Shown in pieces: positions 1 to 41,736 of a DNA stretch of 41,736 nucleotides. The DNA comes from a virus. Taxonomy: Duplodnaviria; Caudoviricetes. The stretch lies in IMG/VR virus record IMGVR_UViG_3300044728_000096, positions 1-41,736 of that record; one strand, written 5' to 3'. A program made the translations under genes and the position numbers. Position 1 is the first letter of the stretch. Each line of letters begins with the position of its first letter. The notes below the pieces were generated by a model. It worked only from the letters and a program-made list of their open reading frames with translations, made no database searches and had not been told where the DNA came from.

Positions 1-300
1 TCGCACGTGCAGTGGATGAACTCCACTGTGATGCCCGCTATCGTCTCCATGACTGGTCGTCTCCTTGGAGCTCCTCGCCGGCGCCGATCTGGCGTCAGTC
101 TGACCAATCATACTCTGTTTCCGTGCATAAGGCAAACTCAGCCGTGTGCGCTTACACACGAGCCGAGCACGCCCTACACACGAAACTTCATCGGTGCCGC
201 TTGACTTTACACACGAGCCACCTCCGGGCCAATCCTCCCACGATCCTCCGGAGTCACCCTGCACGTGGGATGTCCGTATGCAGCATCGTGGGCGGATTGG

Positions 301-328
301 CCTAGGATTGCGGCTCCGTTGGCCCTAG
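301..328 (-). promoter_or_regulatory. Dispersed CTAGG-flanked element (CCTAGGATTGCGGCTCCGTTGGCCCTAG)
   Basis: Core CTCCGTTGGC recurs 10 times in the same orientation. Confidence 0.75.
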
Positions 329-354
329 ATGGTGTCGCGTCTGTCCCGCTCGGG

Positions 355-669
355 TCAGCCCTCCTCCATGTCTGCGCGGCTGATCGGTGCCAGCCACGCA
401 TCGCCGCCGTCACTCGCCGGCGTCCACTGCTCGCTGTCGTGGCTGAAGCCATAGCCGTCCTCAGTCACCCGGATGCCGATGGGCTCGCTGCCCTCACCGA
501 GCTCGATGTTGATGGCGATGGCCCGGTTGCCCGGACCCACGATGTTGATTTGGTCCAGCCGGCTGCCCTCCTCGCGCTCTGCGATGGTGGCCACCGGCTC
601 GTGGCTGCTGAAGATGCCGCCGGCCGGGTTGACCCGATCCACGTACACCGTCCACTCTCTGGTCGTCAC
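355..669 (-). CDS. Hypothetical early protein (allele A)
   Basis: 104 aa ORF with GGAG RBS; near-identical copy at 41357-41671 differs mostly by conservative or silent changes. Confidence 0.8.
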   Translation of the reverse strand: MTTREWTVYVDRVNPAGGIFSSHEPVATIAEREEGSRLDQINIVGPGNRAIAINIELGEGSEPIGIRVTEDGYGFSHDSEQWTPASDGGDAWLAPISRADMEEG

Positions 670-926
670 TCCTGTGTCTCCTCTGTGATCCCGAGCTCCT
701 CAAGCATGAGCTCGATTCGTGCGGGCACCGCGTGGCAGCCGCACTCGTTGTCGGAACAGCTCCCGGACTCCCCGCGAGCGTCCTCAAGCTGATCACGGAG
801 CAGCCTGATCGCGCCCTTGCGGGTGGTCCACAGCGGGAGGCGCTGTGCCCCCCGCTCATCAAAGTGCTGGTCATAGGTGATGAGGTCCGCCAGTGGCGGA
901 TACTGCTCGTCAGACAACGCCCTCAC
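666..926 (-). CDS. Hypothetical protein
   Basis: Coupled start/stop overlap with downstream gene; GGAGG RBS. Confidence 0.65.
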   Translation of the reverse strand: MRALSDEQYPPLADLITYDQHFDERGAQRLPLWTTRKGAIRLLRDQLEDARGESGSCSDNECGCHAVPARIELMLEELGITEETQE

Positions 927-24121: not shown

Positions 24122-24292
24122 TCAACTGGCGCACTTGGTGGCCGCAGCGTGTGCGATCTTGAAGGCAGCAGCCTCAGTGTTGGCAGGGTCCTTGGCTGCG
24201 CTGTTGAAGGCAGACAGGAACACCCGCAGGCACGCAGCTGGATAGCGGTTGCGCACCGCAGGTGGGAGCTCGTCCACACGGCTGTAGGGCAT
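24122..24292 (-). CDS. ChaB family protein (56 aa, not in ORF track)
   Basis: Own translation MPYSRVDELPPAVRNRYPAACLRVFLSAFNSAAKDPANTEAAAFKIAHAAATKCAS matches the ChaB pattern MPY...LP..V...P......AFN.A....A..IA.AA. Confidence 0.8.
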   Translation of the reverse strand: MPYSRVDELPPAVRNRYPAACLRVFLSAFNSAAKDPANTEAAAFKIAHAAATKCAS

Positions 24293-24726: not shown

Positions 24727-24909
24727 TCAGGCTTCCTGCGCAGCTCCGTTGGCGCTAGCTGGTGTCTCGGGGTTGACCCTCGCCGGCGGATCGGCCACAT
24801 CCGCCCGGTTGAGCCTCGGATTGTTGTGACGTGGGTACACGGGGCAGCACGGCAGCACGTGGAGGTCGCAGTGCTTGGCGAACACCTGCCCGCAGCTAGA
24901 GCACTTCAT
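24727..24909 (-). CDS. Small Cys-rich protein
   Basis: ATGA-coupled to TerS; CSSC...HC...CC. Confidence 0.45.
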   Translation of the reverse strand: MKCSSCGQVFAKHCDLHVLPCCPVYPRHNNPRLNRADVADPPARVNPETPASANGAAQEA

Positions 24910-25517
24910 GGCAGTGGCTCGGTGGCGGTGGCCGCCTCCTCCAGTGCGTCCTTGAGCATGCCCTCAATGTAGCGGTCCACGTCGCTGGTCCCAGCGCCCT
25001 CCGGCTCTGGCGTGGGAGCTCGGGCTGCGTCACCAAACATGTCCAGCGCCAGCCTCGCCCGGCGATCAGCCAGCACGAACACTGCGGCAAGGTCCCTGAA
25101 CGTCCACTTGGTGGGCTCAATGATGGTGATGCGGCCATCCTCCTCCGTGTGCTGCCGGAACATCGGACCAGCGAGCCCCTGCTGAACACGCTCCAGCGCC
25201 TTGTCAGCAATGGCGAGCTCCTTGTCCACGAGCTCCCGCCTGCGCTGAAACTTCAGCCGCTCCTCCTCACGGAATCCACGCTCACGCTCATCACGTCTGA
25301 TGGTGTCAGCCCATGCATCGTACGCCCGAGCTCGGTCAGGCCAACTCCACCGTGAGCTCCATTCCTCACACTGCCGAGCCGAAGTGAAGCCCAGCTCCTT
25401 GCGTACCAGTTCAGCTGTCCGGAGCTGCGGCCCAGCATCACGGTACAGCCTGAACGCGCTGTATGCACGGCCCGTCTCACCCGGCTGCCGCTCCCAGATC
25501 GGTCCCTCAGCTCCCAT
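24906..25517 (-). CDS. terS: Terminase small subunit
   Basis: WERQPGET..AY.AF..YRD...WS.RW.W..RA.AYD pattern; upstream of TerL. Confidence 0.75.
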   Translation of the reverse strand: MGAEGPIWERQPGETGRAYSAFRLYRDAGPQLRTAELVRKELGFTSARQCEEWSSRWSWPDRARAYDAWADTIRRDERERGFREEERLKFQRRRELVDKELAIADKALERVQQGLAGPMFRQHTEEDGRITIIEPTKWTFRDLAAVFVLADRRARLALDMFGDAARAPTPEPEGAGTSDVDRYIEGMLKDALEEAATATEPLP

Positions 25518-25912: not shown

Positions 25913-26349
25913 CAGCGCAGCCGGAGCTCCGCGTGGAGGTGCGGCAGCGGCATCCAGTCAATCACCGGCCCGTCCAGCAGCGTCTCGTCCCCAATCATCG
26001 GCACCCCGTACATGCTGCTGAACGGGTGGAGCTCGTCCGGGATGCGGACACGGGGCAGCCCAGTGATGGGGTCCCTGACGCCCAGCTCGCGGAGCTCTGA
26101 CCGCAGTGCGTCCCGGTCCAGCGGGTGGAGCCGGATGCGCTGGATGAGCTGGCCCTCATGCCCGGCGCAGAGCCGGTTGAGGTGCTCCAGCACTCTCGTC
26201 CCCTGTGTCATTGGTAGTCTCCCATGTTGTAGCTGGTCCAGCAAGATCGGTGCCACCAGTGGCCTAGGCGCCACATCGGTCGCTGCCACCAGCGAGCCCG
26301 CCGGCCGCACCACAGGCAGTACCTCACGCCCGGCGGGCTCTGAGGACAC
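25912..26349 (-). CDS. Hypothetical protein
   Basis: ORF tiles between neighbours; true start uncertain. Confidence 0.45.
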   Translation of the reverse strand: MSSEPAGREVLPVVRPAGSLVAATDVAPRPLVAPILLDQLQHGRLPMTQGTRVLEHLNRLCAGHEGQLIQRIRLHPLDRDALRSELRELGVRDPITGLPRVRIPDELHPFSSMYGVPMIGDETLLDGPVIDWMPLPHLHAELRLR

Positions 26350-26563
26350 GGATGATCTGCCGGGTGGTCACCGCCCGAGCTCCGTGCCGGATGGCCTTGT
26401 AGCGCATGCCCTCGCTGATGTCATAGTGCTGGTGCTGGGCCCACTCCGGCCGCAGCCCAAGCTCGTGTGCGAACCGCTCCAGCTCCTCGTCCGTGTCGGC
26501 CACAAGGTGGCTCATGAGCATGCCCCGGTAGCGGTTGCGGGCGTGGTCCACGTACACACTCAC
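26324..26563 (-). CDS. DUF4031-like protein
   Basis: VYVD...MSHLVADT.EEL..FA..LGL...W.Q..HYDI.....AI..GA. Confidence 0.8.
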   Translation of the reverse strand: MSVYVDHARNRYRGMLMSHLVADTDEELERFAHELGLRPEWAQHQHYDISEGMRYKAIRHGARAVTTRQIIRVLRARRA

Positions 26564-26663
26564 TCCGACACCTGCTGCCACAGGTACGCTGCGAGCACGA
26601 TCCAGAACACGATGGAGCCGATGATCACGCAGCCCAGCATGCGCGCCGATCCACGCTCACCGC

Positions 26664-27480: not shown

Positions 27481-27704
27481 CGCACCTCCACCTTGGAGCC
27501 GGTCTGCCGTGCCTCCATCGCACAGCCCAGACAGAGCCGGATGCGCTGGCCGTCCACGTAGCACCAGTGGAGCTGCCCGAGCTGGAGTGGCCCCGAGCGC
27601 CCATCGTCGCGCAGCTCCCGGTAGTGCGTGAAGCCGCACCGCTCGCAGGCCACTGCGGTGCTGCGGGCAATCCATGAGGGTACAGCGTGTGTCGCCATGG
27701 TCAC
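27477..27704 (-). CDS. Small Zn-finger protein
   Basis: CERC...LCLGC; coupled. Confidence 0.6.
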   Translation of the reverse strand: MTMATHAVPSWIARSTAVACERCGFTHYRELRDDGRSGPLQLGQLHWCYVDGQRIRLCLGCAMEARQTGSKVEVR

Positions 27705-28207
27705 CCCTCCACCAGCAGCATGAGCTCGTCCGCGAGCTCCCGCACCGGCCGGCGAGCGTCCAGCACAAGGTCTGCCCGCTCAAGCTGGCGCTCCACCTTG
27801 CTGATGCGCCCCTTGACCCACGTGGGGTTGAACGTGAACTGCTGTGGCCGGTTGCGCCGCCGCTCCTCGCCCACCTCTGGAGGTGCTGTCAGTGCTGCCA
27901 AACGTACGTCAGCATACACACCCACCATCTCCATGAATGAGGCGTTGCCCAGCCGGTCCCCCTCGCCCAGCACGAGCCTGCTTGGGAGCGTGCGGAGCCA
28001 TGCGACCGCCAGCGGCTGGACGCTCATGCTGAGCCCGTCCGTGCCACTGAACGTGCCCCGCTGTCTCCCGAGCTCCAGCCAGCCGGCGCCCAGCCTGTGA
28101 GCAAGTGGCTTGGTCATCTCCACCGCCGGCCCCAGCCGGCCGGTGAGCTCCCGCATCAGCGTGGTCTTGCCAATGCCGGGCTCACCAATGAGGTACACCA
28201 TCCTCAT
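27701..28207 (-). CDS. P-loop kinase, 5-hydroxymethyluracil DNA kinase-like
   Basis: YLIGEPGIGKTT Walker A, FSGTDGLSMSVQP and GEGDRL motifs typical of this family; next to aGPT-Pplase2. Confidence 0.85.
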   Translation of the reverse strand: MRMVYLIGEPGIGKTTLMRELTGRLGPAVEMTKPLAHRLGAGWLELGRQRGTFSGTDGLSMSVQPLAVAWLRTLPSRLVLGEGDRLGNASFMEMVGVYADVRLAALTAPPEVGEERRRNRPQQFTFNPTWVKGRISKVERQLERADLVLDARRPVRELADELMLLVEG

Positions 28208-28566
28208 GGGGTGGCGCCCTCGTCCTGCGCCGGGTCAGGAGCCGTCGCAGCCGTGCTGGACTCCGTGAAGTGCTGGCCCTCCGGCGGCTGTGTGTCGGCT
28301 GCCGCCTCCTCGTCCACGGTGGCCGTGGTGGCCGGCTCCGCCGTGACGCCCTTGCGGCAGTTGTCGCACACGTCCTCATCGGGCAGCGGCTCAATGGCCC
28401 GCACCAGCCGGCCCTCCGGGGTGTTGCGCTCCAGCTCAATCCCACAGCGCGTCACGGCCCTGTTCTCCACACGGCTGTCCACGTGGTGAATCTTGCCGGT
28501 GGCCTCCGGCATCAGCTTGCCATGCTCGTTGACCGTGTGTCGTTGGACCCAATCACCGATGTTCAT
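28204..28566 (-). CDS. Hypothetical metal-binding protein within modification cluster
   Basis: HH...RCG...CDNC; ATGA-coupled on both sides. Confidence 0.65.
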   Translation of the reverse strand: MNIGDWVQRHTVNEHGKLMPEATGKIHHVDSRVENRAVTRCGIELERNTPEGRLVRAIEPLPDEDVCDNCRKGVTAEPATTATVDEEAAADTQPPEGQHFTESSTAATAPDPAQDEGATP

Positions 28567-29474
28567 CTGATCACCTCCAGTGCTCTCATCGCCACGCCTC
28601 CGGCGAGCGCAAGCCCAATCCTATGCCCCCCGGTGGCGACCACGAGCCCATCCCCGAGCTCCTTGACCACCAGCTCGGGCAGCATTGGCCGGCGTCCCGT
28701 GATGGGCTGGAATCCCCGCAGACCGGGGAACAGCTTTGCTGTGTCGTTGACCAGTGCGCCCAGCTTGGGATCGGGCCACTGCTTGCTGACCGTCTCGCCC
28801 ACCCGGATCAGCCCGGCGTCCCAGCGCCGCGCAGTGACGTGATGGTACGGGCGTGTCACATACGTGACCACCTCGTCCGCCAGCTGCCCTTGCGCGAGGA
28901 TCGCGGAGCCAATCAGCGGCTCCACCCCGAGCTCGTCAAACCCACACGCTTGGAGCAGCGCGTCTGTCCACGCGCCGGCGCAGATGGCCACACGGTGCGC
29001 CTTGATGATCATGTGCTGTGAGGTGAGGAGCTGCCAGCCGGCCGGCGTGCGGTTGATCAGCCTCACACGGCTGGTGAAGCTCGGCTCAAGCACCAGCCAC
29101 GGGTCTGCGACCAGCAACCCTGGCCGCTCGTCCCACGCATCGCTGTTCCACCGCTTCACCTGCTCGGTCTCATGCCGAGCTCCCACGTTGCCTAGGTGCG
29201 CGGCACCGGCTGCGGTGTGGCTGTCCTCCCACCACTCCGGGATGATCGTTGCCAGCCGGCCCTCCAGCCACTCCCACCGCACGTAGCCGGCGGAGTTGCG
29301 GCTGGCGCCCTCCTCATCGTGGTCGTCCACCACAAGCACGCTCCAGCCTGTCCCCTCTCTGGCCAACGCCGCCAACGCAGAGCCCCAATAGCCGCCACCG
29401 ATGACCACGAGGTCCCAGCGATCACCCGGCGGCTCAGCGGACAGCGCCGGGTTGGCCCGGAGGTCAACGGTCAC
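28563..29474 (-). CDS. FAD-dependent oxidoreductase (DAO/glycine oxidase fold)
   Basis: DLVVIGGGYWG dinucleotide motif, GASRNSAG, ICAGAW, TGRRP, TGGHRIGL; start at GTG 29474. Confidence 0.88.
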   Translation of the reverse strand: MTVDLRANPALSAEPPGDRWDLVVIGGGYWGSALAALAREGTGWSVLVVDDHDEEGASRNSAGYVRWEWLEGRLATIIPEWWEDSHTAAGAAHLGNVGARHETEQVKRWNSDAWDERPGLLVADPWLVLEPSFTSRVRLINRTPAGWQLLTSQHMIIKAHRVAICAGAWTDALLQACGFDELGVEPLIGSAILAQGQLADEVVTYVTRPYHHVTARRWDAGLIRVGETVSKQWPDPKLGALVNDTAKLFPGLRGFQPITGRRPMLPELVVKELGDGLVVATGGHRIGLALAGGVAMRALEVIR

Positions 29475-30514
29475 GCGCCCACCTCCTCGTTGACGAGCTG
29501 GCCTGTGGCGGCGAACACCGGCATCATCTCCTTGCGTACGCCAATCCACGCGCCGCTCAGCTCGCCCAGCAGGTCAGGGTGGAAGCTGGCCCGGCGAGCC
29601 GCCAGCAGCGAGCTCCGCACGGGTGCGTACGGTCCAGACTGCGGCAGCGTGTTCACCGCGCCCAGCAGCTCGTCAATGTCGTGCCCTGTGTAGTACCTGC
29701 CCCGGCTCAGTGCTTTCCAGTTACACAGGACAGTCTCCACCTCGCTGATCTTCAGCGGCACGCCTCGCGCCCAGAGCTCGCGCTGGACGTGGGCCGTGGC
29801 GGCGTCCAGCCGCCCAATCGCCTCGTTGCTCTGATCAGCGTGCGGCGGCAGGTCGCTGAACACGCCCTGCTCCGCGAGCGTCTCAAGCCCCTCGCGTGGT
29901 CCCGAGCTCCAGCGGTGGCCGGCGTCTGGCGCCTCCATCTCCCAGCCGTTGACCTCCACCAGCACGTCGCACAGCTTGTAGGCTGCCCAGCGCCCATTGA
30001 ACGGCACGTCCATCGCTGTGGCGCTCACCTTGTTCCAGCGGTCCTGTGGGCTCAGCCACTCATTCCAGTCCCACTGGAGCCAACCCCGCAGCCCCGCCTT
30101 GCCGTGGGCGTGGTGCTGCTCCGCGATGTACGTCAGGTGCTTGATCAGGAAGTCTGGCGTGCGGAGCCCTCGCCGCTCCACACCGGCCCGGCCGGCGAGC
30201 TGCCGTGCTGTCGTCTCCCACGGCTGCCAGCCCTCGCTGAGCAGCACGCACTCACTGGCCGCCACGTTGTACAGCGCCACGTACATCAGCGTGCGGCGCA
30301 GCGCCTCCGGCTCACCCGGCCCGTGGCCGTCTGCGGCGTTGAGCTGGCGCAGGATCGGATACACCGGGTCCATGTCGCCCGTCCTCACCTGCGCTGCGCT
30401 GAACCGGGCCAGCAGGTCCAGCGTCTCCTCCGGCTGGGAGGTGCTTGTACCTCCGCTCACGGTATCGGGCGCTGCTGCCTTGTGGCGTGGTCGTCTCGGT
30501 TGCTTGGTAGCCAA
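29471..30514 (-). CDS. Amino acid:DNA transferase (aGPT-Pplase2, DNA-glycosylase HhH fold)
   Basis: DMDPVY, GRWAAYK, SSGPREGL, ETVLC.WK...GRYY.GHDIDE motifs. Confidence 0.85.
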   Translation of the reverse strand: MATKQPRRPRHKAAAPDTVSGGTSTSQPEETLDLLARFSAAQVRTGDMDPVYPILRQLNAADGHGPGEPEALRRTLMYVALYNVAASECVLLSEGWQPWETTARQLAGRAGVERRGLRTPDFLIKHLTYIAEQHHAHGKAGLRGWLQWDWNEWLSPQDRWNKVSATAMDVPFNGRWAAYKLCDVLVEVNGWEMEAPDAGHRWSSGPREGLETLAEQGVFSDLPPHADQSNEAIGRLDAATAHVQRELWARGVPLKISEVETVLCNWKALSRGRYYTGHDIDELLGAVNTLPQSGPYAPVRSSLLAARRASFHPDLLGELSGAWIGVRKEMMPVFAATGQLVNEEVGA

Positions 30515-30734
30515 CTGCTGTTGCCTCCTCGTCTGTCATGGGTCGCCCGAGCTCGGCCGGGTTGCCCCTTGGTCGCACACATCGTGCCTTGTCGTGGACA
30601 GCATAGCCGGCGCCCTCCATCCGATCCTTGAGCGCCCTCGCCAGCTGATCCGTGTTGAGCTTGCTCGGCTCCTCCGTGGCCTTGAGCCAGTCGCCCACGG
30701 CCTGCTTCACGAGCTGCCTGAACGTGATGGTCAC
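30312..30734 (-). CDS. Hypothetical protein
   Basis: Protein-like N-terminal half; 3' part overlaps aGPT-Pplase2 by ~200 nt. Confidence 0.5.
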   Translation of the reverse strand: MTITFRQLVKQAVGDWLKATEEPSKLNTDQLARALKDRMEGAGYAVHDKARCVRPRGNPAELGRPMTDEEATAVGYQATETTTPQGSSARYRERRYKHLPAGGDAGPAGPVQRSAGEDGRHGPGVSDPAPAQRRRRPRAG

Positions 30735-30783
30735 TTATCCCCTGTGTAGGCCACTGGGTTATCAACTCCCGTCCACTGGGTTA

Positions 30784-31008
30784 TCAACTACAAGCCGGGT
30801 GTGCGAACACGGAGCTGAACGGGCTACCCGCCGGCGCCGGCCGCTGCTCAAACGGGCGCTGTGCGTCAAACGTCCCGCCGCAGCTGTGGCACGTCCACAG
30901 CTTGGCGCCGGTGAGGTCCCCGAACACGCTGGGCGCCATCTCGCGCCGTGGAGCTCGGGGTGCGAGGCTCACCACACGCGGCTTGGGCTTGCGGATGCGC
31001 TCAGCCAT
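30784..31008 (-). CDS. Small Zn-ribbon protein
   Basis: MAERIRKPKP...CHSC...HPAC; start estimated. Confidence 0.5.
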   Translation of the reverse strand: MAERIRKPKPRVVSLAPRAPRREMAPSVFGDLTGAKLWTCHSCGGTFDAQRPFEQRPAPAGSPFSSVFAHPACS

Positions 31009-31252
31009 CAGAGCTGTCCGGTGCGCCCGCCTCCCCCCACGCCAGCAGCGATGAGTCCCCCACCTCAGCCACCGGGTTGATGCGCACACGGGTGAAGCAC
31101 ACGGTGATCTCCGTGGCCGTGTTGATGTCAGACTTCAGCCGCACGCCTCGCACGTGTGAGCTCAGGTCCACCCCGTTGATCACCAGCTTGCCGCCATAGC
31201 GCCCCACCGGCCCCAGCCGCAGCTCCATGTCCAGCACGTCAACGTCCGGCAC
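31001..31252 (-). CDS. Hypothetical protein
   Basis: GGAGG RBS; beta-rich KLVINGVDLS..VRGVRL. Confidence 0.6.
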   Translation of the reverse strand: MPDVDVLDMELRLGPVGRYGGKLVINGVDLSSHVRGVRLKSDINTATEITVCFTRVRINPVAEVGDSSLLAWGEAGAPDSSDG

Positions 31253-32126
31253 GCCGCACCTCCCGAGCCGTCCGCAGCACGTTGGCCCGCTGTGCCTCCT
31301 CCGCCGGGTCCAGACACTGCCACATGCCCTTCATCCCGTACCACACCATTGTGTAGCGGTGTCCCGTGGTGCGGGTGCGGCGCATGGGCGTCACCCCGTG
31401 GAGAGCACCCTGCCCATCGAACAGGGTCAGGCTGCCGTCCGCAATCTCCAGCCCCACACCGTACTCGGGCACGCTCAGGTAGCCGCCGCTGATGTGGTCC
31501 TTGAGCCCCAGCATCCCGCTCCACACGCTCTTGAAGTTGCCGGCATCGTAGTGGTACGGCAGCTGGCTGTCCCGGTTGGCCACACCGGAGGTGAACACCG
31601 GGCTCCACTGCCACGCCGGGTGCACCTTGCTCACGCTGTCCCGGTGCAGGTTGAAGATGTCCTCATTGGCCCACTGGTACCACGGGAGCACCGCGTCACT
31701 CGTGTCGAGCAGGAGCTGGTGCAGCCGTGGATTCTCGCGGGCCAGTGCGTACGTCTCGCACTTCTGTGTCCTGAAGCTCGTGCGCGGTCGCACACCAAAC
31801 TTCAGCGACACCGTGGCCATGCCCGCCGTCCGCATGTGCGGCTCCCACTTGCGGTGCCTGTCGAGCTCGCCGCGCAGCGCCGCAAACAGGTCCGGGTTCA
31901 GCCTGATGTAGAGCACCTCCGGCGTCCCGTCCGGGCTCACGATCACCGTGGAGCTCGTCAGCACCTCCGTGATGTCCTCCTCCGCAGCCAGCCGTGGGCC
32001 ATCACCGATCCACTCGCGTGTCTGCTCCTTGCTCCACCGCTCCCGGCGGATGGTGCGCATGCCCATCTCGTCCGTGAGCAGGTTGGCGAGCTCCGGCGGG
32101 AGCATCGCCTGTTGGGTCAGGGTCAT
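31239..32126 (-). CDS. TET/JBP-family 2OG-Fe(II) dioxygenase (probable thymine hydroxylase)
   Basis: FTSGVAN...YHYDAGN (HxD), GGYL.VPEY, LHGVTP (distal His), RYTMVWY (Arg) motifs. Confidence 0.9.
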   Translation of the reverse strand: MTLTQQAMLPPELANLLTDEMGMRTIRRERWSKEQTREWIGDGPRLAAEEDITEVLTSSTVIVSPDGTPEVLYIRLNPDLFAALRGELDRHRKWEPHMRTAGMATVSLKFGVRPRTSFRTQKCETYALARENPRLHQLLLDTSDAVLPWYQWANEDIFNLHRDSVSKVHPAWQWSPVFTSGVANRDSQLPYHYDAGNFKSVWSGMLGLKDHISGGYLSVPEYGVGLEIADGSLTLFDGQGALHGVTPMRRTRTTGHRYTMVWYGMKGMWQCLDPAEEAQRANVLRTAREVRRAGR

Positions 32127-32127
32127 C

Positions 32128-32271
32128 TCATCCTCCTGTGTAGGTGTACACGCCGTCAGGCACGTCCAGCCCGCAGCCGGCGTGCCGCAGTCCCCGGATT
32201 GTACCTGAGCACGTGCACGGTTGCCCGCAGTCTGGACACGCCCAGTGCGGCCGGTCCCACCGGGTGCTCAA
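32128..32271 (-). CDS. 47 aa Zn-finger protein
   Basis: TTG start overlapping upstream TGA; CPDC...C.C...H..C. Confidence 0.5.
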   Translation of the reverse strand: MSTRWDRPHWACPDCGQPCTCSGTIRGLRHAGCGLDVPDGVYTYTGG

Positions 32272-32441
32272 TCGGAGCTCTCCCGGCGGAACATCCGCTT
32301 GTGCGAGCACTTCGGGCAGTAGCCGATCATCTGTGTCGGGTCCAGCGTCCTCTGGAGCGTGTCCATCGGCATCGTGCTGGACTCCACCTTGTTGGTCCCG
32401 CACTTGGTGCATCTCCACGGGAGCCGGCGCAACTCGGCCAA
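32268..32441 (-). CDS. 57 aa Zn-ribbon protein (bL33-like spacing), not in ORF track
   Basis: Own translation MAELRRLPWRCTKCGTNKVESSTMPMDTLQRTLDPTQMIGYCPKCSHKRMFRRESSD; GGAGG RBS. Confidence 0.6.
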   Translation of the reverse strand: MAELRRLPWRCTKCGTNKVESSTMPMDTLQRTLDPTQMIGYCPKCSHKRMFRRESSD

Positions 32442-32443
32442 CG

Positions 32444-33301
32444 CTATGCGTCCTCCGGCGGCTGCCCATCCTCGGACACAGCCTCCCCATCGGGCGTGGC
32501 TTCCTGCGCATCTCCGTTGGCCGTAGCTGTATCCTCGGCTGCGGCCCTCGCCTCCCCGATCCGTGCGTCCAGCTCCGCGCCGGCCGGGTCAAGCTTCAGC
32601 AGGAACAGGAACACGTCCTTGTTGGTCTCAAGCTCCTCACGCTGCTGGATCAGCAGCAGTGCGTCCACCACCGGGCCAAACTCCGCAGACTCCATGATCA
32701 CCGTGAGCTGGCGCAGGTCTGTGGCCAAGTACCGCTCAAGGTTGTGCTCCGGCGTGTTGTTCCACGGCTCCACCGGGTTGACCTCCAGCCCCATCCGGAG
32801 CTGCTCCGTGTCGGCCGGCGTGTAGCCCGTGCCCAGCATGGCCTCGTCCGCGTCAAGGTCCCGGAGCTCGCCGCCCTGCTCAATCTGGAGCAGGAGCTGG
32901 AGCAGCTGCGGCTCATCGTACGTGGCAAGGTCCCCGGTGCGATTGTCCATGAGCAGGATGCGCAGCGCCTGATCATCGTCCACGTCCCGGTAGTGGACTG
33001 GGAACAGCAGGTTGCCGTCCACGTCCACGTCCATGCCGGGCACCTCGCCGGGCTGGACCACGATGCCGCCATCCTCAGAGCTCCAGCCCTCTGCGAAGAT
33101 CAGCAGAGCGCCCTCTGTGCGGTGGTTGCCTGCGAGGATCGCCCCGCTGCTCCGCTGGGCGACCACCACGCCGTGCCAGCCGTTGATGGCGATGGACTCC
33201 TTGATGGCGGACAGGTTGCCCTGTCTCGGGTTGGCCGGGTGCTTGTGGAGCTCGCCGGCGGGCACCCACTCGATCAGCATTGTGTGGTCGTCTGTCTTCA
33301 C
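32444..33301 (-). CDS. ParB/Srx-like N-terminal domain protein associated with DNA modification
   Basis: HPANPRQG...IKESI...G...VVV.....ILAGNHR...DNR motifs; no parA nearby. Confidence 0.85.
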   Translation of the reverse strand: MKTDDHTMLIEWVPAGELHKHPANPRQGNLSAIKESIAINGWHGVVVAQRSSGAILAGNHRTEGALLIFAEGWSSEDGGIVVQPGEVPGMDVDVDGNLLFPVHYRDVDDDQALRILLMDNRTGDLATYDEPQLLQLLLQIEQGGELRDLDADEAMLGTGYTPADTEQLRMGLEVNPVEPWNNTPEHNLERYLATDLRQLTVIMESAEFGPVVDALLLIQQREELETNKDVFLFLLKLDPAGAELDARIGEARAAAEDTATANGDAQEATPDGEAVSEDGQPPEDA

Positions 33302-38260: not shown

Positions 38261-38694
38261 ACTGCTATGGTCCGGGCGTGGCCTGTCTCGCGGGAGCTCT
38301 TGGTGAACCCCACCTTGCGGATCAGCCCAGCCCGAGCTGCGGCGTTGATGCGGGCGCCGATGGCATTGAAGTGGTTGTCCGGGACACCCACTGCGGCCAC
38401 CAACACGTCACTCGTGAACTGCTCACCGGATCGGGCAAGCAGCCGGAGCTCCCGGTCAGCCGCCTCAGTCCAGCCCTCCGCGACGGCTGCGCGCTCAGCA
38501 CGCCCCATCCCGGCCTGAGCTCGCCGCTCGCCCACCTTGGCGCCGGCGTTGACCGGAGCTCCCGGCCGCCACACCGTCTGTTTGCCGCACACGCGGCACT
38601 TCCCCAGCTTGGTGGCGGGCACCACGCTGTTCACGAGCCCGGAGTCATCGCCCCGCTGTAGCCCGCACCCCTGACATGTCCATTTGGTCGTCAT
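38245..38694 (-). CDS. Zn ribbon plus wHTH-like protein
   Basis: CQGC...CRVC; FTSD...NAIGA...A...GLI...S.R...HAR...VW. Confidence 0.7.
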   Translation of the reverse strand: MTTKWTCQGCGLQRGDDSGLVNSVVPATKLGKCRVCGKQTVWRPGAPVNAGAKVGERRAQAGMGRAERAAVAEGWTEAADRELRLLARSGEQFTSDVLVAAVGVPDNHFNAIGARINAAARAGLIRKVGFTKSSRETGHARTIAVWEGK

Positions 38695-38863
38695 GGTCGT
38701 CTCCTCTGTGCCTTGGCTTCCACGCCAGCACGTCACGCCGGCGGATCAGGTAGTCACGCGCCGGCTTGCGGCCCTTGAGCCGTCCCTCGCGGATGGCCCG
38801 GCGCACGCTTGACTGATCCACGCCGGCGAGCTCAGCCGCCTCTGCGGTGCTCATCTCGTCCAC
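38645..38863 (-). CDS. Excisionase/MerR-like HTH protein
   Basis: MSTAEAAELAGVDQSSVRRAIREGRLKG; first gene after promoter 38930. Confidence 0.8.
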   Translation of the reverse strand: MDEMSTAEAAELAGVDQSSVRRAIREGRLKGRKPARDYLIRRRDVLAWKPRHRGDDHDDQMDMSGVRATAGR

Positions 38864-40836: not shown

Positions 40837-41028
40837 CCGGGAGCTGGTATGCCACTGGGCGTGGTGGCCGTCAGACCACGTGCTGGCCTTGCGGGTCAGG
40901 CACGCGCTGGCGTTGTGGTTGGCTGCGTCGCACTCGGAGCACAGCCCTGTGGTCCTGACCGGGAGCAGGCAGCCCCGGTCGCACGTGCAGTGGATGAACT
41001 CCACTGTGATGCCCGCTATCGTCTCCAT
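40834..41028 (-). CDS. 64 aa Cys/His-rich protein (5' end repeated at 1-50)
   Basis: METIAGITVEFIHCTCDRGC...CSEC; GAGACGACC RBS. Confidence 0.6.
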   Translation of the reverse strand: METIAGITVEFIHCTCDRGCLLPVRTTGLCSECDAANHNASACLTRKASTWSDGHHAQWHTSSR

Positions 41029-41736
41029 GACTGGTCGTCTCTTGGGAGCTCCTCGCCGGCGCCGATCTGGCCGCCGGTCAGACCAATCATACCCCGAACA
41101 GGGGTTGTGAGTAAACCGAACACTTGGTTGGCTCCGCACACGATTGTGTGAGGCGCCACACGAAGATTGTCGAGCCGGCCTGACCTCCCACACCGTGTGG
41201 CAGCCAAGCCGGCCGTGTGTAATGGCGCCGGAGCTGAGGAGCGCAACGCTACCGCAGCCCGGCGTCAATGTGATGGTAGGATACAGGATCGTGGCCGGAG
41301 GTGGCACGCTGCGCATCTCCGTTGGCCCTAGGCGGTGACGCGGCGGAGCTCCTCAGTCAGTCCGCCTCCATGTCCTCACGGCTGACCGGCGCCAGCCATG
41401 CGTCCCCGCCGTCACTCGCCGGCGTCCACTTCTCACTGTCGTGGCTGAAGCCGTAGCCGTCCTCAGTCACCCGGATGCCGATGGGCTCGCTGCCCTGCCC
41501 GAGCTCGATGTTGATGGCGATGGCCCGGTTGCCCGGTCCCACGATGTTGATTTGGTCCAGCCATGACCCCTCCTCGCGCTCTGCGATGGTGGCCACTGGC
41601 TCGTGGCTACTGAAGATGCCGCCGGCCGGGTTGACCCGATCCACGTACACCGTCCACTCTCTGGTCGTCACTCCTGTGTCTCCTCTGTGATCCCGAGCTC
41701 CTCAAGCATGAGCTCGATTCGTGCGGGCACCGCGTG
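40979..41736. repeat. Imperfect terminal direct repeat, copy 2
   Basis: See 1-734. Confidence 0.95.
41357..41671 (-). CDS. Hypothetical early protein (allele B of 355-669)
   Basis: 104 aa, about 7 substitutions versus allele A. Confidence 0.8.
   Translation of the reverse strand: MTTREWTVYVDRVNPAGGIFSSHEPVATIAEREEGSWLDQINIVGPGNRAIAINIELGQGSEPIGIRVTEDGYGFSHDSEKWTPASDGGDAWLAPVSREDMEAD

Follow-up and report, generated by a model that had tools for sequence, protein, structure and literature searches.

A five-gene phage cassette predicted to hypermodify thymine wholly on DNA, with a TET/JBP dioxygenase as its first enzyme

The amino-acid thymine hypermodifications that we found characterised in the literature start from 5-hydroxymethyl-U (5hmU) inserted by the phage polymerase, and the locus described here raises the question of whether such a base could be made entirely on DNA after replication. 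The window analysed, the whole 41,736-nucleotide stretch of soil-phage DNA in IMG/VR record IMGVR_UViG_3300044728_000096, carries five predicted enzyme or helper genes at 27701..33301 on its minus strand (Table 1). The preliminary description had claimed five co-oriented genes with family motifs at this place; all were found, in the order and over the span first read, and Pfam, PHROG, ESM Atlas and AlphaFold/Foldseek searches support its family calls. Its picture of close packing stood for order and span but not for contiguity, as six small ORFs are interspersed (two between the ParB-like and TET genes, three between TET and transferase and one between flavoprotein and kinase).

We propose, with a probability of roughly 0.55, that the five genes modify T after replication and wholly on DNA, by the route T -> 5hmU -> phospho-5hmU -> amino-acid-substituted T -> uncapped 5-aminomethyl-U. 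The TET/JBP enzyme would oxidise T in DNA to 5hmU, the kinase would phosphorylate this base on DNA, the transferase would displace the phosphate with an amino acid linked through its amino group, and cleavage of this adduct by the flavoprotein would leave uncapped 5-aminomethyl-U, while the ParB-like protein would likely load or target the enzymes on DNA. These reactions we infer; directly seen here are the gene families, the intact catalytic residues, a match to PaMx11 gp47, co-inheritance, and the missing hydroxymethylase, methylase and capping genes. Since such a route uses normal dTTP, replication could be left to a host polymerase, in keeping with the lack of a polymerase gene in this phage. 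The purpose is likely a shield against host restriction nucleases.

Table 1. Features of the cassette region (positions in the window)
Feature	Position	Strand	Basis or remark
ParB-like protein, 285 aa	32444..33301	-	PHROG 723/8071/620, ESM Atlas
Small Cys-rich ORF, 57 aa	32268..32441	-	Sub-cut-off zinc-ribbon matches
Small Cys-rich ORF, 47 aa	32128..32271	-	Outside the conserved cassette
TET/JBP Fe(II)/2-oxoglutarate dioxygenase, 295 aa	31239..32126	-	Pfam, fold, motif
Two small ORFs, 31001-31252 and 30784-31008 (Cys-rich)	30784..31252	-	
17-nt word, two exact copies 22 nt apart	30751..30789	-	Short non-coding gap within the gene run
ORF, 3' part overlapping the transferase	30312..30734	-	
Amino acid:DNA transferase (aGPT-Pplase2/ADDT), 347 aa	29471..30514	-	Pfam, motif
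DAO-fold flavoprotein, 303 aa	28563..29474	-	Pfam, profile, fold
ORF with His/Cys motifs, 120 aa	28204..28566	-	Between flavoprotein and kinase
P-loop kinase, Ploopntkinase3 family, 168 aa	27701..28207	-	Pfam

The contig ends overlap (1-113 with 40979-41092 at 95%, and 314-734 with 41317-41736 at 92%), reaching exactly both ends, which suggests a near-complete genome of ~41 kb. The overlap is imperfect and an exact terminal repeat test was negative; the completeness assumed at first reading is likely from the ends, but the IMG/VR entry is labelled linear, and CheckV puts its completeness at 66%. One public contig covers 26000-35443 with zero differences and possibly comes from the source sample, so it is not independent. 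A six-frame search of the window gave zero matches to PF00583, PF00145, PF00303, PF01555 and PF18723, no polymerase or dCMP deaminase was noticed among the scanned window ORFs, and neither a GNAT nor an amidoligase was found in 774 six-frame segments with Pfam and custom profiles. Thus, the absences first claimed (hydroxymethylase, dCMP deaminase, polymerase, C5-methylase and GNAT) hold within the contig, and the deduction that the route runs wholly on DNA is supported, a thymidylate-synthase-family gene being present in 0/45 related records.

The TET/JBP protein scores 34.6 bits with Pfam Tet_JBP, 0.3 bit short of the cut-off of 34.9. The best fold matches of its AlphaFold model (pLDDT 94) are CcTet, CMD1, NgTet1 and TET2, with TET-family structures ranking above AlkB/FTO. 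As expected of a DSBH enzyme, the HxD...H iron ligands and the 2-OG-binding Arg are in place, and these residues (H192-x-D194, H243 and R257) are invariant across 41 aligned relatives. The choice between T and 5mC as substrate is unreadable from a TET sequence, and one phage TET, TET89, oxidises ~10% of T in E. coli DNA (Burke 2021, PMC8256090). CcTet, the top fold match, was solved on 6mA and 5mC DNA. It is from the gene context that we infer a thymine hydroxylase acting on DNA. If the enzyme acted instead on 5mC laid down by a host methylase, the downstream enzymes would modify 5hmC, and this would agree with the majority of characterised phage TETs being 5mC dioxygenases, with kinase or aG/PT genes in some C5-MT/TET contigs and with C5-methylase matches in 7/45 related records. 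We regard such a route as improbable, as a methylase was found neither in the window nor in the cultured carriers (0/5), a set of 138 flanking ORFs (30 loci supplied 135) had none, C5-methylase matches pass the cut-off in 2/13 near-complete IMG/VR records, and thymine O4 serves as a metal ligand in the PUGT mechanism.

The kinase matches its Pfam family with E 1e-21 and is putatively a 5hmU-DNA kinase. The name '5hmU DNA kinase' given at first reading was right as to a P-loop kinase, but the protein belongs to the clade-3 Ploopntkinase3 family and showed no match to the characterised 5-hmdU DNA kinase families HMUDK_HMUD1/HMUD2, nor was an HMUDK_hel partner (PF18723) found in the window genome. 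Kinase matches were seen in 415 phage records and TET matches in 100. One may argue that the pathway ends prematurely, at 5hmU or its phosphate, or runs only in part, and that the kinase is linked to packaging instead: phage Orion has a clade-3-family kinase alone, without any TET, Nigel and MementoMori hold only ParB, TET and kinase ahead of the terminase, and several T-containing palindromes are strongly avoided in the window. This appears very improbable to us, since none of the four enzymes is truncated or has lost its catalytic residues, a separate small terminase is encoded in the window (24906-25517, by PHROG search), the kinase is not adjacent to the large terminase, and kinase and transferase stand together in 41/46 window-type clusters. 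The 6-mer palindromes found at <0.3 of expectation in the window were 1/12 of the TG-containing, 9/17 of the other T-containing and 3/8 of the T-free ones. The pattern differs in Kozie, where 4/7 TG-containing palindromes are avoided, and the near-total loss of T-free palindromes of the PaMx11 stretch was not seen in the window.

The ParB-like protein matches PHROG 723 (E 5e-22) and clusters with ParB_N-like proteins of the ESM Atlas at 0.96, while Pfam gave no match, neither to ParB_N nor to HTH_ParB; hence the call 'ParB-N protein' made earlier is borne out by PHROG and the Atlas and not by Pfam. It combines a ParB-N-type N-terminus with a conserved C-terminal block of ~50 aa that looks strand-helix-helix-like (27 aligned), and in 49 of the 55 TET loci with upstream room its gene immediately precedes TET. 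A true ParB partition protein was considered and rejected, as the ParB-N likeness comes from PHROG and the Atlas alone, HTH_ParB is not matched in Pfam and no ParA partner was found among the scanned window ORFs. The best Atlas match of the C-terminal block reached 0.76, and its ribbon-helix-helix look is an impression from the alignment.

The transferase, which starts at a TTG with a strong Shine-Dalgarno site (an alternative GTG start lies at 30460), matches Pfam ADDT PF18724 at 49 bits against a cut-off of 26 (E 8e-13), and its catalytic C264 and metal ligands E260/T261 are present. It keeps D24, Y47, Y51, E92, R94, R97, W146, K150, E243, T244, C247, Y257, D262 and E265 of PUGT and differs at F173, D175 and H95. 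Lys248 is one of the two published determinants of glycine-carboxylate binding, and N265 occupies its place, so that glycine is not assured as the donor. Y274 corresponds to Tyr257; placing Tyr at this position in the 15599 enzyme abolished diamine transfer, and the Tyr here indicates an amino-acid-type donor. A diamine:DNA transferase of the 15599/PhiW-14 type was rejected, as this needs Gly 248, His 251 and Asp 257 where the window has N, A and Y. When judged as a glycine:DNA transferase of the PUGT/YuA type, the enzyme has Tyr257, Trp146, Lys150 and Asp24 and lacks Lys248; the glycyl-T intermediate first proposed is therefore supported at the former positions and weakened at the latter, and the odds that glycine is the donor are about even. 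A quick tree, drawn from 56 chosen rows, places the transferase outside the PaMx11/YuA/PhiW-14/15599 group; ViI gp247 forms a long unplaced branch there.

Position 248 is D in 39/46 and N in 4/46 window-type clusters, which were collected with search patterns that do not include that position (one motif, in L133, was mis-parsed); the K248 count of the PaMx11-type set is circular, K248 being inside its search pattern, and was excluded from evidence. In the 2026 mutagenesis, position 248 is named among the residues that determine the donor, and additional donors are anticipated. These observations, along with a second divergent flavoprotein family in 12 clusters, favour a modified reading in which T is still modified on DNA, but the Asn/Asp248 transferase takes a non-glycine donor, and oxidation of the adduct by the flavoprotein frees no amine and gives an undescribed base. 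We hold it unlikely, because the flavoprotein retains the gp47 cage and R242 and because relatives have GNAT or amidoligase genes in the adjacent slot, a sign that a free amine is formed. To return to the preferred route, N-Calpha oxidation would give 5-aminomethyl-U from any alpha-amino acid, and hence the identity of the donor matters less for its end product than for its intermediate.

The flavoprotein, whose GTG start overlaps the transferase stop, matches Pfam DAO (E 1.5e-18), and its profile finds PaMx11 gp47 as the top PDB entry (E 2e-24, the runner-up being at 2e-14). Foldseek also ranks gp47 first (TM 0.74-0.79, rmsd 3.3), and the fold is the compact GR2/DAO type of NGTO, closest to 8Z2O. 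A single-sequence phmmer search of the PDB missed gp47, which was found by profile and fold alone, and a single-sequence search of viral contigs gave no match; profile scans of metagenome/genome contigs gave at least three loci and at least one weak locus, which were kept out of the counts. W51, P179, Y180 and R242 of NGTO are identical (W51, Y180 and R242 being W69, Y210 and R262 here), while Q182 and K268 are conservatively replaced by H and R, so the flipped-base cage (W51, Y180, Q182, K268, with R242) is kept. The DNA-backbone residues K202, N205, R210 and Y244 are unconserved or fall in gapped columns. From the retained cage and proposed carboxylate-binding Arg, the gp47-like flavin step postulated at first reading appears supported, and the flavoprotein likely cleaves the amino-acid adduct to 5-aminomethyl-dU. 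R242 is apparently missing from Phelemich gp4.

Co-occurrence of these genes was then surveyed, as the preliminary description had suggested, with 80 of 115 window-type transferase loci kept (46 clusters) and 80 of 149 PaMx11-type loci kept (60 clusters). Near the window-type transferases we found TET in 40, the clade-3 kinase in 41, a flavoprotein in 41, ParB in 36 and thymidylate synthase in 1 of the 46 clusters, whereas TET was near 0 and thymidylate synthase near 49 of the 60 PaMx11-type clusters, which implies that TET substitutes for the hydroxymethylase. The cassette is thus a separate module inherited together. In 12 clusters the second, very divergent flavoprotein family, which includes the Tonitrus gp8/Wooper gp5 type (hhalign E 7e-5, probability 63%), takes the same role. 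Weighing against the preferred reading are the change of Lys248 to Asn, a kinase outside the characterised families and without HMUDK_hel, and NGTO backbone residues that are not kept or alignable; further such points are the place of the transferase in the quick tree, the kinase without TET in Orion, kinase matches in 415 phage records against only 100 for TET, the apparent loss of R242 in Phelemich gp4, a transferase visible in only 7/77 TET-found loci (many of the 77 being short contigs), the C5-methylase matches in 7/45 related records and the CheckV figure.

In the relatives L020, L111, L119, L120, L146 and L170 a GNAT gene occupies the slot that separates transferase from flavoprotein, and in L112 and L126 (by Pfam) an amidoligase-like gene with LMWPc does so, L134 and L185 having the same layout. 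The slot is empty in the window, where the two genes overlap. Genes of these kinds are what the capping of an amine would call for, which suggests that a free amine is made. The amine may in the end be capped by an enzyme not seen here, be it an unrecognised small ORF, a gene off the contig or a host enzyme; GNAT genes in 10/45 related records, a weak GNAT match in the L012 slot, the CheckV estimate and the six small ORFs without assigned function speak for it. Counts for GNAT and comparable genes are minimum values, because several neighbour-family profiles were built from 1-10 sequences. We think a capping enzyme of this sort quite improbable, as the 774 segments had no GNAT or amidoligase, the contig ends overlap and the complete cultured carriers have no GNAT (0/5).

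With respect to known systems, the cassette is a variant of one whose route was predicted in print and whose gene set occurs in several cultured phages. In PaMx11, gp46-gp49 are PUGT, NGTO, GNAT and 5hmdU DNA kinase, and the product is 5-acetylaminomethyl-dU (Lee 2022, PMC8989533; Wen 2024, PMC11472151). Both systems have an ADDT-family transferase directly followed by a homologous flavoprotein, and a P-loop kinase downstream; they share the catalytic Cys and metal ligands as well as the flipping cage. Unlike PaMx11, however, where 5hmU comes from a dUMP hydroxymethylase and the phage polymerase, the window would obtain it by TET on DNA; it has no GNAT, its kinase is of clade 3 without HMUDK_hel, Lys248 is Asn, and identity is ~21-27%. 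Hence what marks the PaMx11-type 5-AcNmdU pathway, i.e. dUMP hydroxymethylase, phage polymerase and GNAT, is lacking in the window. The text and figure legend of Lee 2022 describe contigs (Fig. 2, sequences 22-25) with TET_JBP beside T-hypermodifying genes and without hydroxymethylase or 5mC genes, like the window, and predict that these likely form 5hmU within DNA, the same in-situ inference as ours. The TETs of Burke 2021 (PMC8256090), including TET89, are likewise post-replicative, but they had been selected by the presence of a C5-methylase nearby and supply glycosyltransferases with substrate.

Among cultured phages, Mycobacterium smegmatis phage Phelemich and Reprobate (gp1-5), Microbacterium phage Kozie (gp86, gp1-4) and MO526 have the window's five genes in identical order, and Phelemich, Kozie and MO526 also lack GNAT, C5-methylase and thymidylate synthase. 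These actinophage cassettes share 27-40% identity with that of the window, have Asp248 in place of Asn and abut the large terminase, whereas the window's cassette has small ORFs interspersed and lies ~3.7 kb away. The five-gene THM system of Rhodococcus phage Tonitrus (PMC11955845) and gp1-5 of Gordonia phage Wooper resemble the window in ParB, Tet-like JBP, aGPT-Pplase2 and kinase; their fifth, 'hypothetical' gene is a distant flavoprotein-like relative of the separate divergent family, the kinase precedes it, and both are known by annotation alone. We found no published biochemical test or product measurement of such a cassette, and in this sense the pathway is uncharacterised as had been suggested, yet the Lee 2022 prediction, Tonitrus and Phelemich gp1-5 precede it. 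What the present analysis adds is that the genes are inherited together as a module of their own, with a kinase outside the characterised families and a transferase without Lys248.

If the proposed route is true, small phages relying on a host polymerase could gain such protection by acquiring a 4-5 kb cassette, and its enzymes could serve to label T in DNA of any kind. Common in IMG/VR, where dozens of distinct clusters have it, the module also occurs in cultured phages, which makes the 2022 prediction testable. The genes of cultured carriers are annotated mostly as hypothetical, and the TET labelled 'queuine tRNA-ribosyltransferase' and the kinase labelled 'terminase small subunit' can now be corrected. 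More tentatively, and with some doubt, the residues at position 248 allow the idea that TET-linked Asn/Asp248 transferases may be a separate class adding a non-glycine amino acid to T; along with the clade-3 kinase and ParB-like loader they might form a portable, polymerase-independent pathway, the GNAT-less form of which would end in a novel base with a positive charge in virion DNA.

As for the small ORFs, the 57-aa product is a probable zinc-binding protein judged by its Cys-rich sequence; it gave no tblastn match in the fetched loci and no sign of pathway membership. The 120-aa ORF is not a GNAT and has no relative among the fetched loci. In L012, the closest IMG/VR locus, the N-terminal ~85 aa of ORF 30312..30734 recur between TET and transferase, and a relative of ORF 30784-31008 is present elsewhere. 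The 17-nt word matched twice where 0.04 matches were expected, and the repeat pair may be a regulatory site.

All five genes of the enzyme cassette claimed in the preliminary description were found in the window, and judging by its sequence the cassette is real and intact. Its close packing held insofar as the genes lie in a single run whose ORFs abut or overlap, but six small ORFs are interleaved and the run has one short gap, which carries an exact 17-nt direct pair (see table). The claimed absence of hydroxymethylase, C5-methylase, GNAT and polymerase was borne out by six-frame and ORF searches of the window; the six-frame searches, whose positive controls gave matches, also yielded no N6/N4-methylase, thymidylate synthase or HMUDK_hel helical protein there, and custom profiles built from relatives found no capping enzyme. 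We propose, with a probability of roughly 0.55, that the cassette makes uncapped 5-aminomethyl-U from T by a four-step route wholly on DNA. T would be converted to 5hmU and then to 5-phosphomethyl-U. Attack by Cys with elimination of the phosphate would lead to an N-linked amino-acid-T, which would give 5-aminomethyl-U and a 2-oxo acid, the amine staying uncapped. This likens the working of the cassette to the PaMx11 pathway; gene families, residues and linkage are seen directly, but we infer all the chemistry from PaMx11, and the cassette stands outside that pathway by three tested features, namely precursor source, kinase family and Lys248.

Transferases were clustered at 80% identity, using the best 80 of 115 window-type and the best 80 of 149 PaMx11-type loci. 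The 46 window-type clusters carried TET in 40, clade-3 kinase in 41, flavoprotein in 41, GNAT in 9 and thymidylate synthase in 1, whereas the 60 PaMx11-type clusters carried TET in 0, thymidylate synthase in 49, clade-1 kinase in 58 and a gp47-like flavoprotein in 31. The two modules split sharply, though related clusters are not independent. For the window TET, TET-family structures ranked above AlkB/FTO by its model (pLDDT 94), and its iron and 2-oxoglutarate ligands were invariant in 41 aligned homologues (61 found). According to Burke 2021 (PMC8256090), one phage TET oxidises about 10% of T, and the basis of TET choice between T and 5mC is unclear; sequence gives no answer for the window enzyme, whose action on T is predicted from context. 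A C5-methylase was matched in 7/45 records picked as TET, transferase and flavoprotein carriers (five over cut-off), over cut-off in 2/13 near-complete carriers, and in 0/5 cultured phages; we consider a 5mC-based route improbable. A thymidylate-synthase-family gene occurred in 0/45 of these records.

Set against the PaMx11 structure paper, the window transferase has retained its catalytic Cys, the two metal ligands and most phosphate-pocket residues, together with the glycine contacts D24, W146 and K150; it departs at H95, F173, D175 and K261. In a 2026 study, glycine use was shown to be determined by K248 and Y257, and a Tyr at the 257 position abolished diamine transfer. The window enzyme has Tyr at the 257 position but Asn at 248, where 43/46 window-type clusters (best 80 of 115 loci) have Asp or Asn; by this analogy a diamine donor is unlikely and an amino acid likely. 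The glycyl-T intermediate proposed earlier is therefore retained as an amino-acid adduct, glycine itself not being assured, and another donor with another flavin product is a possible, though rather unlikely, reading. In a quick tree of 56 chosen rows the window transferase fell in a 36-row group (SH-aLRT 92), with three helical-domain-linked rows, and PaMx11, YuA, PhiW-14 and 15599 in a separate 19-row group (97); ViI was unplaced.

PaMx11 gp47 was the top PDB match of the flavoprotein both by a 29-homologue profile and by model (pLDDT 92), with glycine oxidases far behind. The wedge Tyr, stacking Trp and proposed carboxylate-binding Arg are identical in the two proteins; several gp47 backbone contacts are not retained. 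IMG/VR loci found by this profile, some of them near-copies, had a transferase nearby in 13/13 and TET in 9/13. Between transferase and flavoprotein, window-type loci have a variable slot, occupied by GNAT in six and by an amidoligase-like gene with LMWPc in four, the latter pointing to an aminoacyl-capped thymine variant. The presence of amine-capping enzymes at this position in relatives supports the view that the flavin step yields a free amine. In the window, Kozie and Phelemich the slot holds no gene, and hidden capping of the amine is a little less probable still than the 5mC route. Reduced ParB-TET-kinase cassettes in Nigel and MementoMori could leave phospho-5hmU in DNA; an early stop of the pathway in the window, which has both transferase and flavoprotein genes, is very improbable. 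An aldo/keto reductase adjoining a Lys248-type transferase and flavoprotein marks another tailoring combination in two loci, and a further locus (L023) has an extra TET-associated glycosyltransferase.

The window kinase belongs to Ploopntkinase3, PaMx11 gp49 matching HMUDK_HMUD1 (weakly) and ViI gp243 HMUD2. Its family occurs alone in Orion, which counts against a simple reading. HMUDK_hel was present in 57/60 PaMx11-type clusters (best 80 of 149 loci) and 4/46 window-type clusters, ParB in 36/46 of the latter (best 80 of 115 loci). ParB lay directly upstream of TET in 49/55 loci having room, and may act as a loader for the cassette enzymes, which agrees with a suggestion that Burke 2021 (PMC8256090) credits to Aravind and co-workers. 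TET-linked ParB-like proteins share a C-terminal block of ~50 aa, which looks like strand-helix-helix.

The pathway had been put forward as possibly uncharacterised; this proved overstated, as it is already predicted in print and widespread, including in cultured phages. Lee 2022 (PMC8989533) infers that TET_JBP takes the hydroxymethylase's place in such contigs, and the Tonitrus announcement (PMC11955845) describes a comparable system of five genes, whose hypothetical gene shows weak kinship to the window flavoprotein. Phelemich, Reprobate, Kozie and MO526 have the same five genes. The open-access literature searched yielded no biochemical test of an amino-acid thymine pathway that starts with TET; with carriers already in culture, the chemistry can be settled.

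The window (67% GC, almost every recognisable gene on the minus strand) encodes portal, capsid, head-tail, major tail and tape-measure proteins, and gene scans gave no sheath match, so the phage is siphovirus-like. Its genes also include RecE/RecT and a RusA-like resolvase; the ORFs scanned gave neither a polymerase nor an integrase. The large terminase is nearest to Streptomyces phages (48%), a weak hint of an actinobacterial host. IMG/VR gives the record as linear, and its CheckV completeness is 66%; its terminal segments, reaching both contig ends, match at 95% and 92% on either side of a diverged ~200-nt middle. Reads over this overlap show two variants, which suggests closely related strains with alternative small genes. 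Contigs bearing close TET relatives measure 40.8 and 42.9 kb, and the window probably represents a nearly complete genome of some 41 kb. A 16-nt word (<=2 mismatches) occurs in 9 copies, all coding-strand, against 0.12 expected in shuffles; several copies are seemingly intergenic and one lies inside the ParB tail, and the word may be a promoter or regulator site of the phage. Palindromes strongly avoided in the window (observed/expected, both strands) were CCCGGG (0/33), GGATCC (0/16), ACCGGT (0/12) and AATT (0/14); GAGCTC, by contrast, has 152 occurrences.

Coordinates of features in the window and in related loci (L numbers)
Source	Position	Feature
Window	314, 4503, 7162, 19244, 24744, 32512, 37717, 39051, 41317	16-nt word
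Window	1-734; 40979-41736 (last ~758)	terminal overlap
Window	30751-30789	17-nt direct pair
Window	32444-32750	ParB C-terminal block
Window	24122-24292	ORF, weakly ChaB-like
Window	26324-26581	DUF4031 protein
Window	38645-38863	excisionase-like HTH, though no integrase in scans
L112	7921-9176	amidoligase-like and LMW-phosphatase-like genes
L126	2751-4072	same
L134	7887-9160	same
L185	7765-9209	same
L104 (Nigel)	1-2382	ParB-TET-kinase, immediately before large terminase
L103 (MementoMori)	1-2176	same
L269 (Orion)	1-567	kinase alone, immediately before large terminase
L009	2734-3564	aldo/keto reductase
L013	7031-7999	aldo/keto reductase
L024 (327 kb phage contig)	3886-11319	two TET and three ParB-like genes beside transferase cassette
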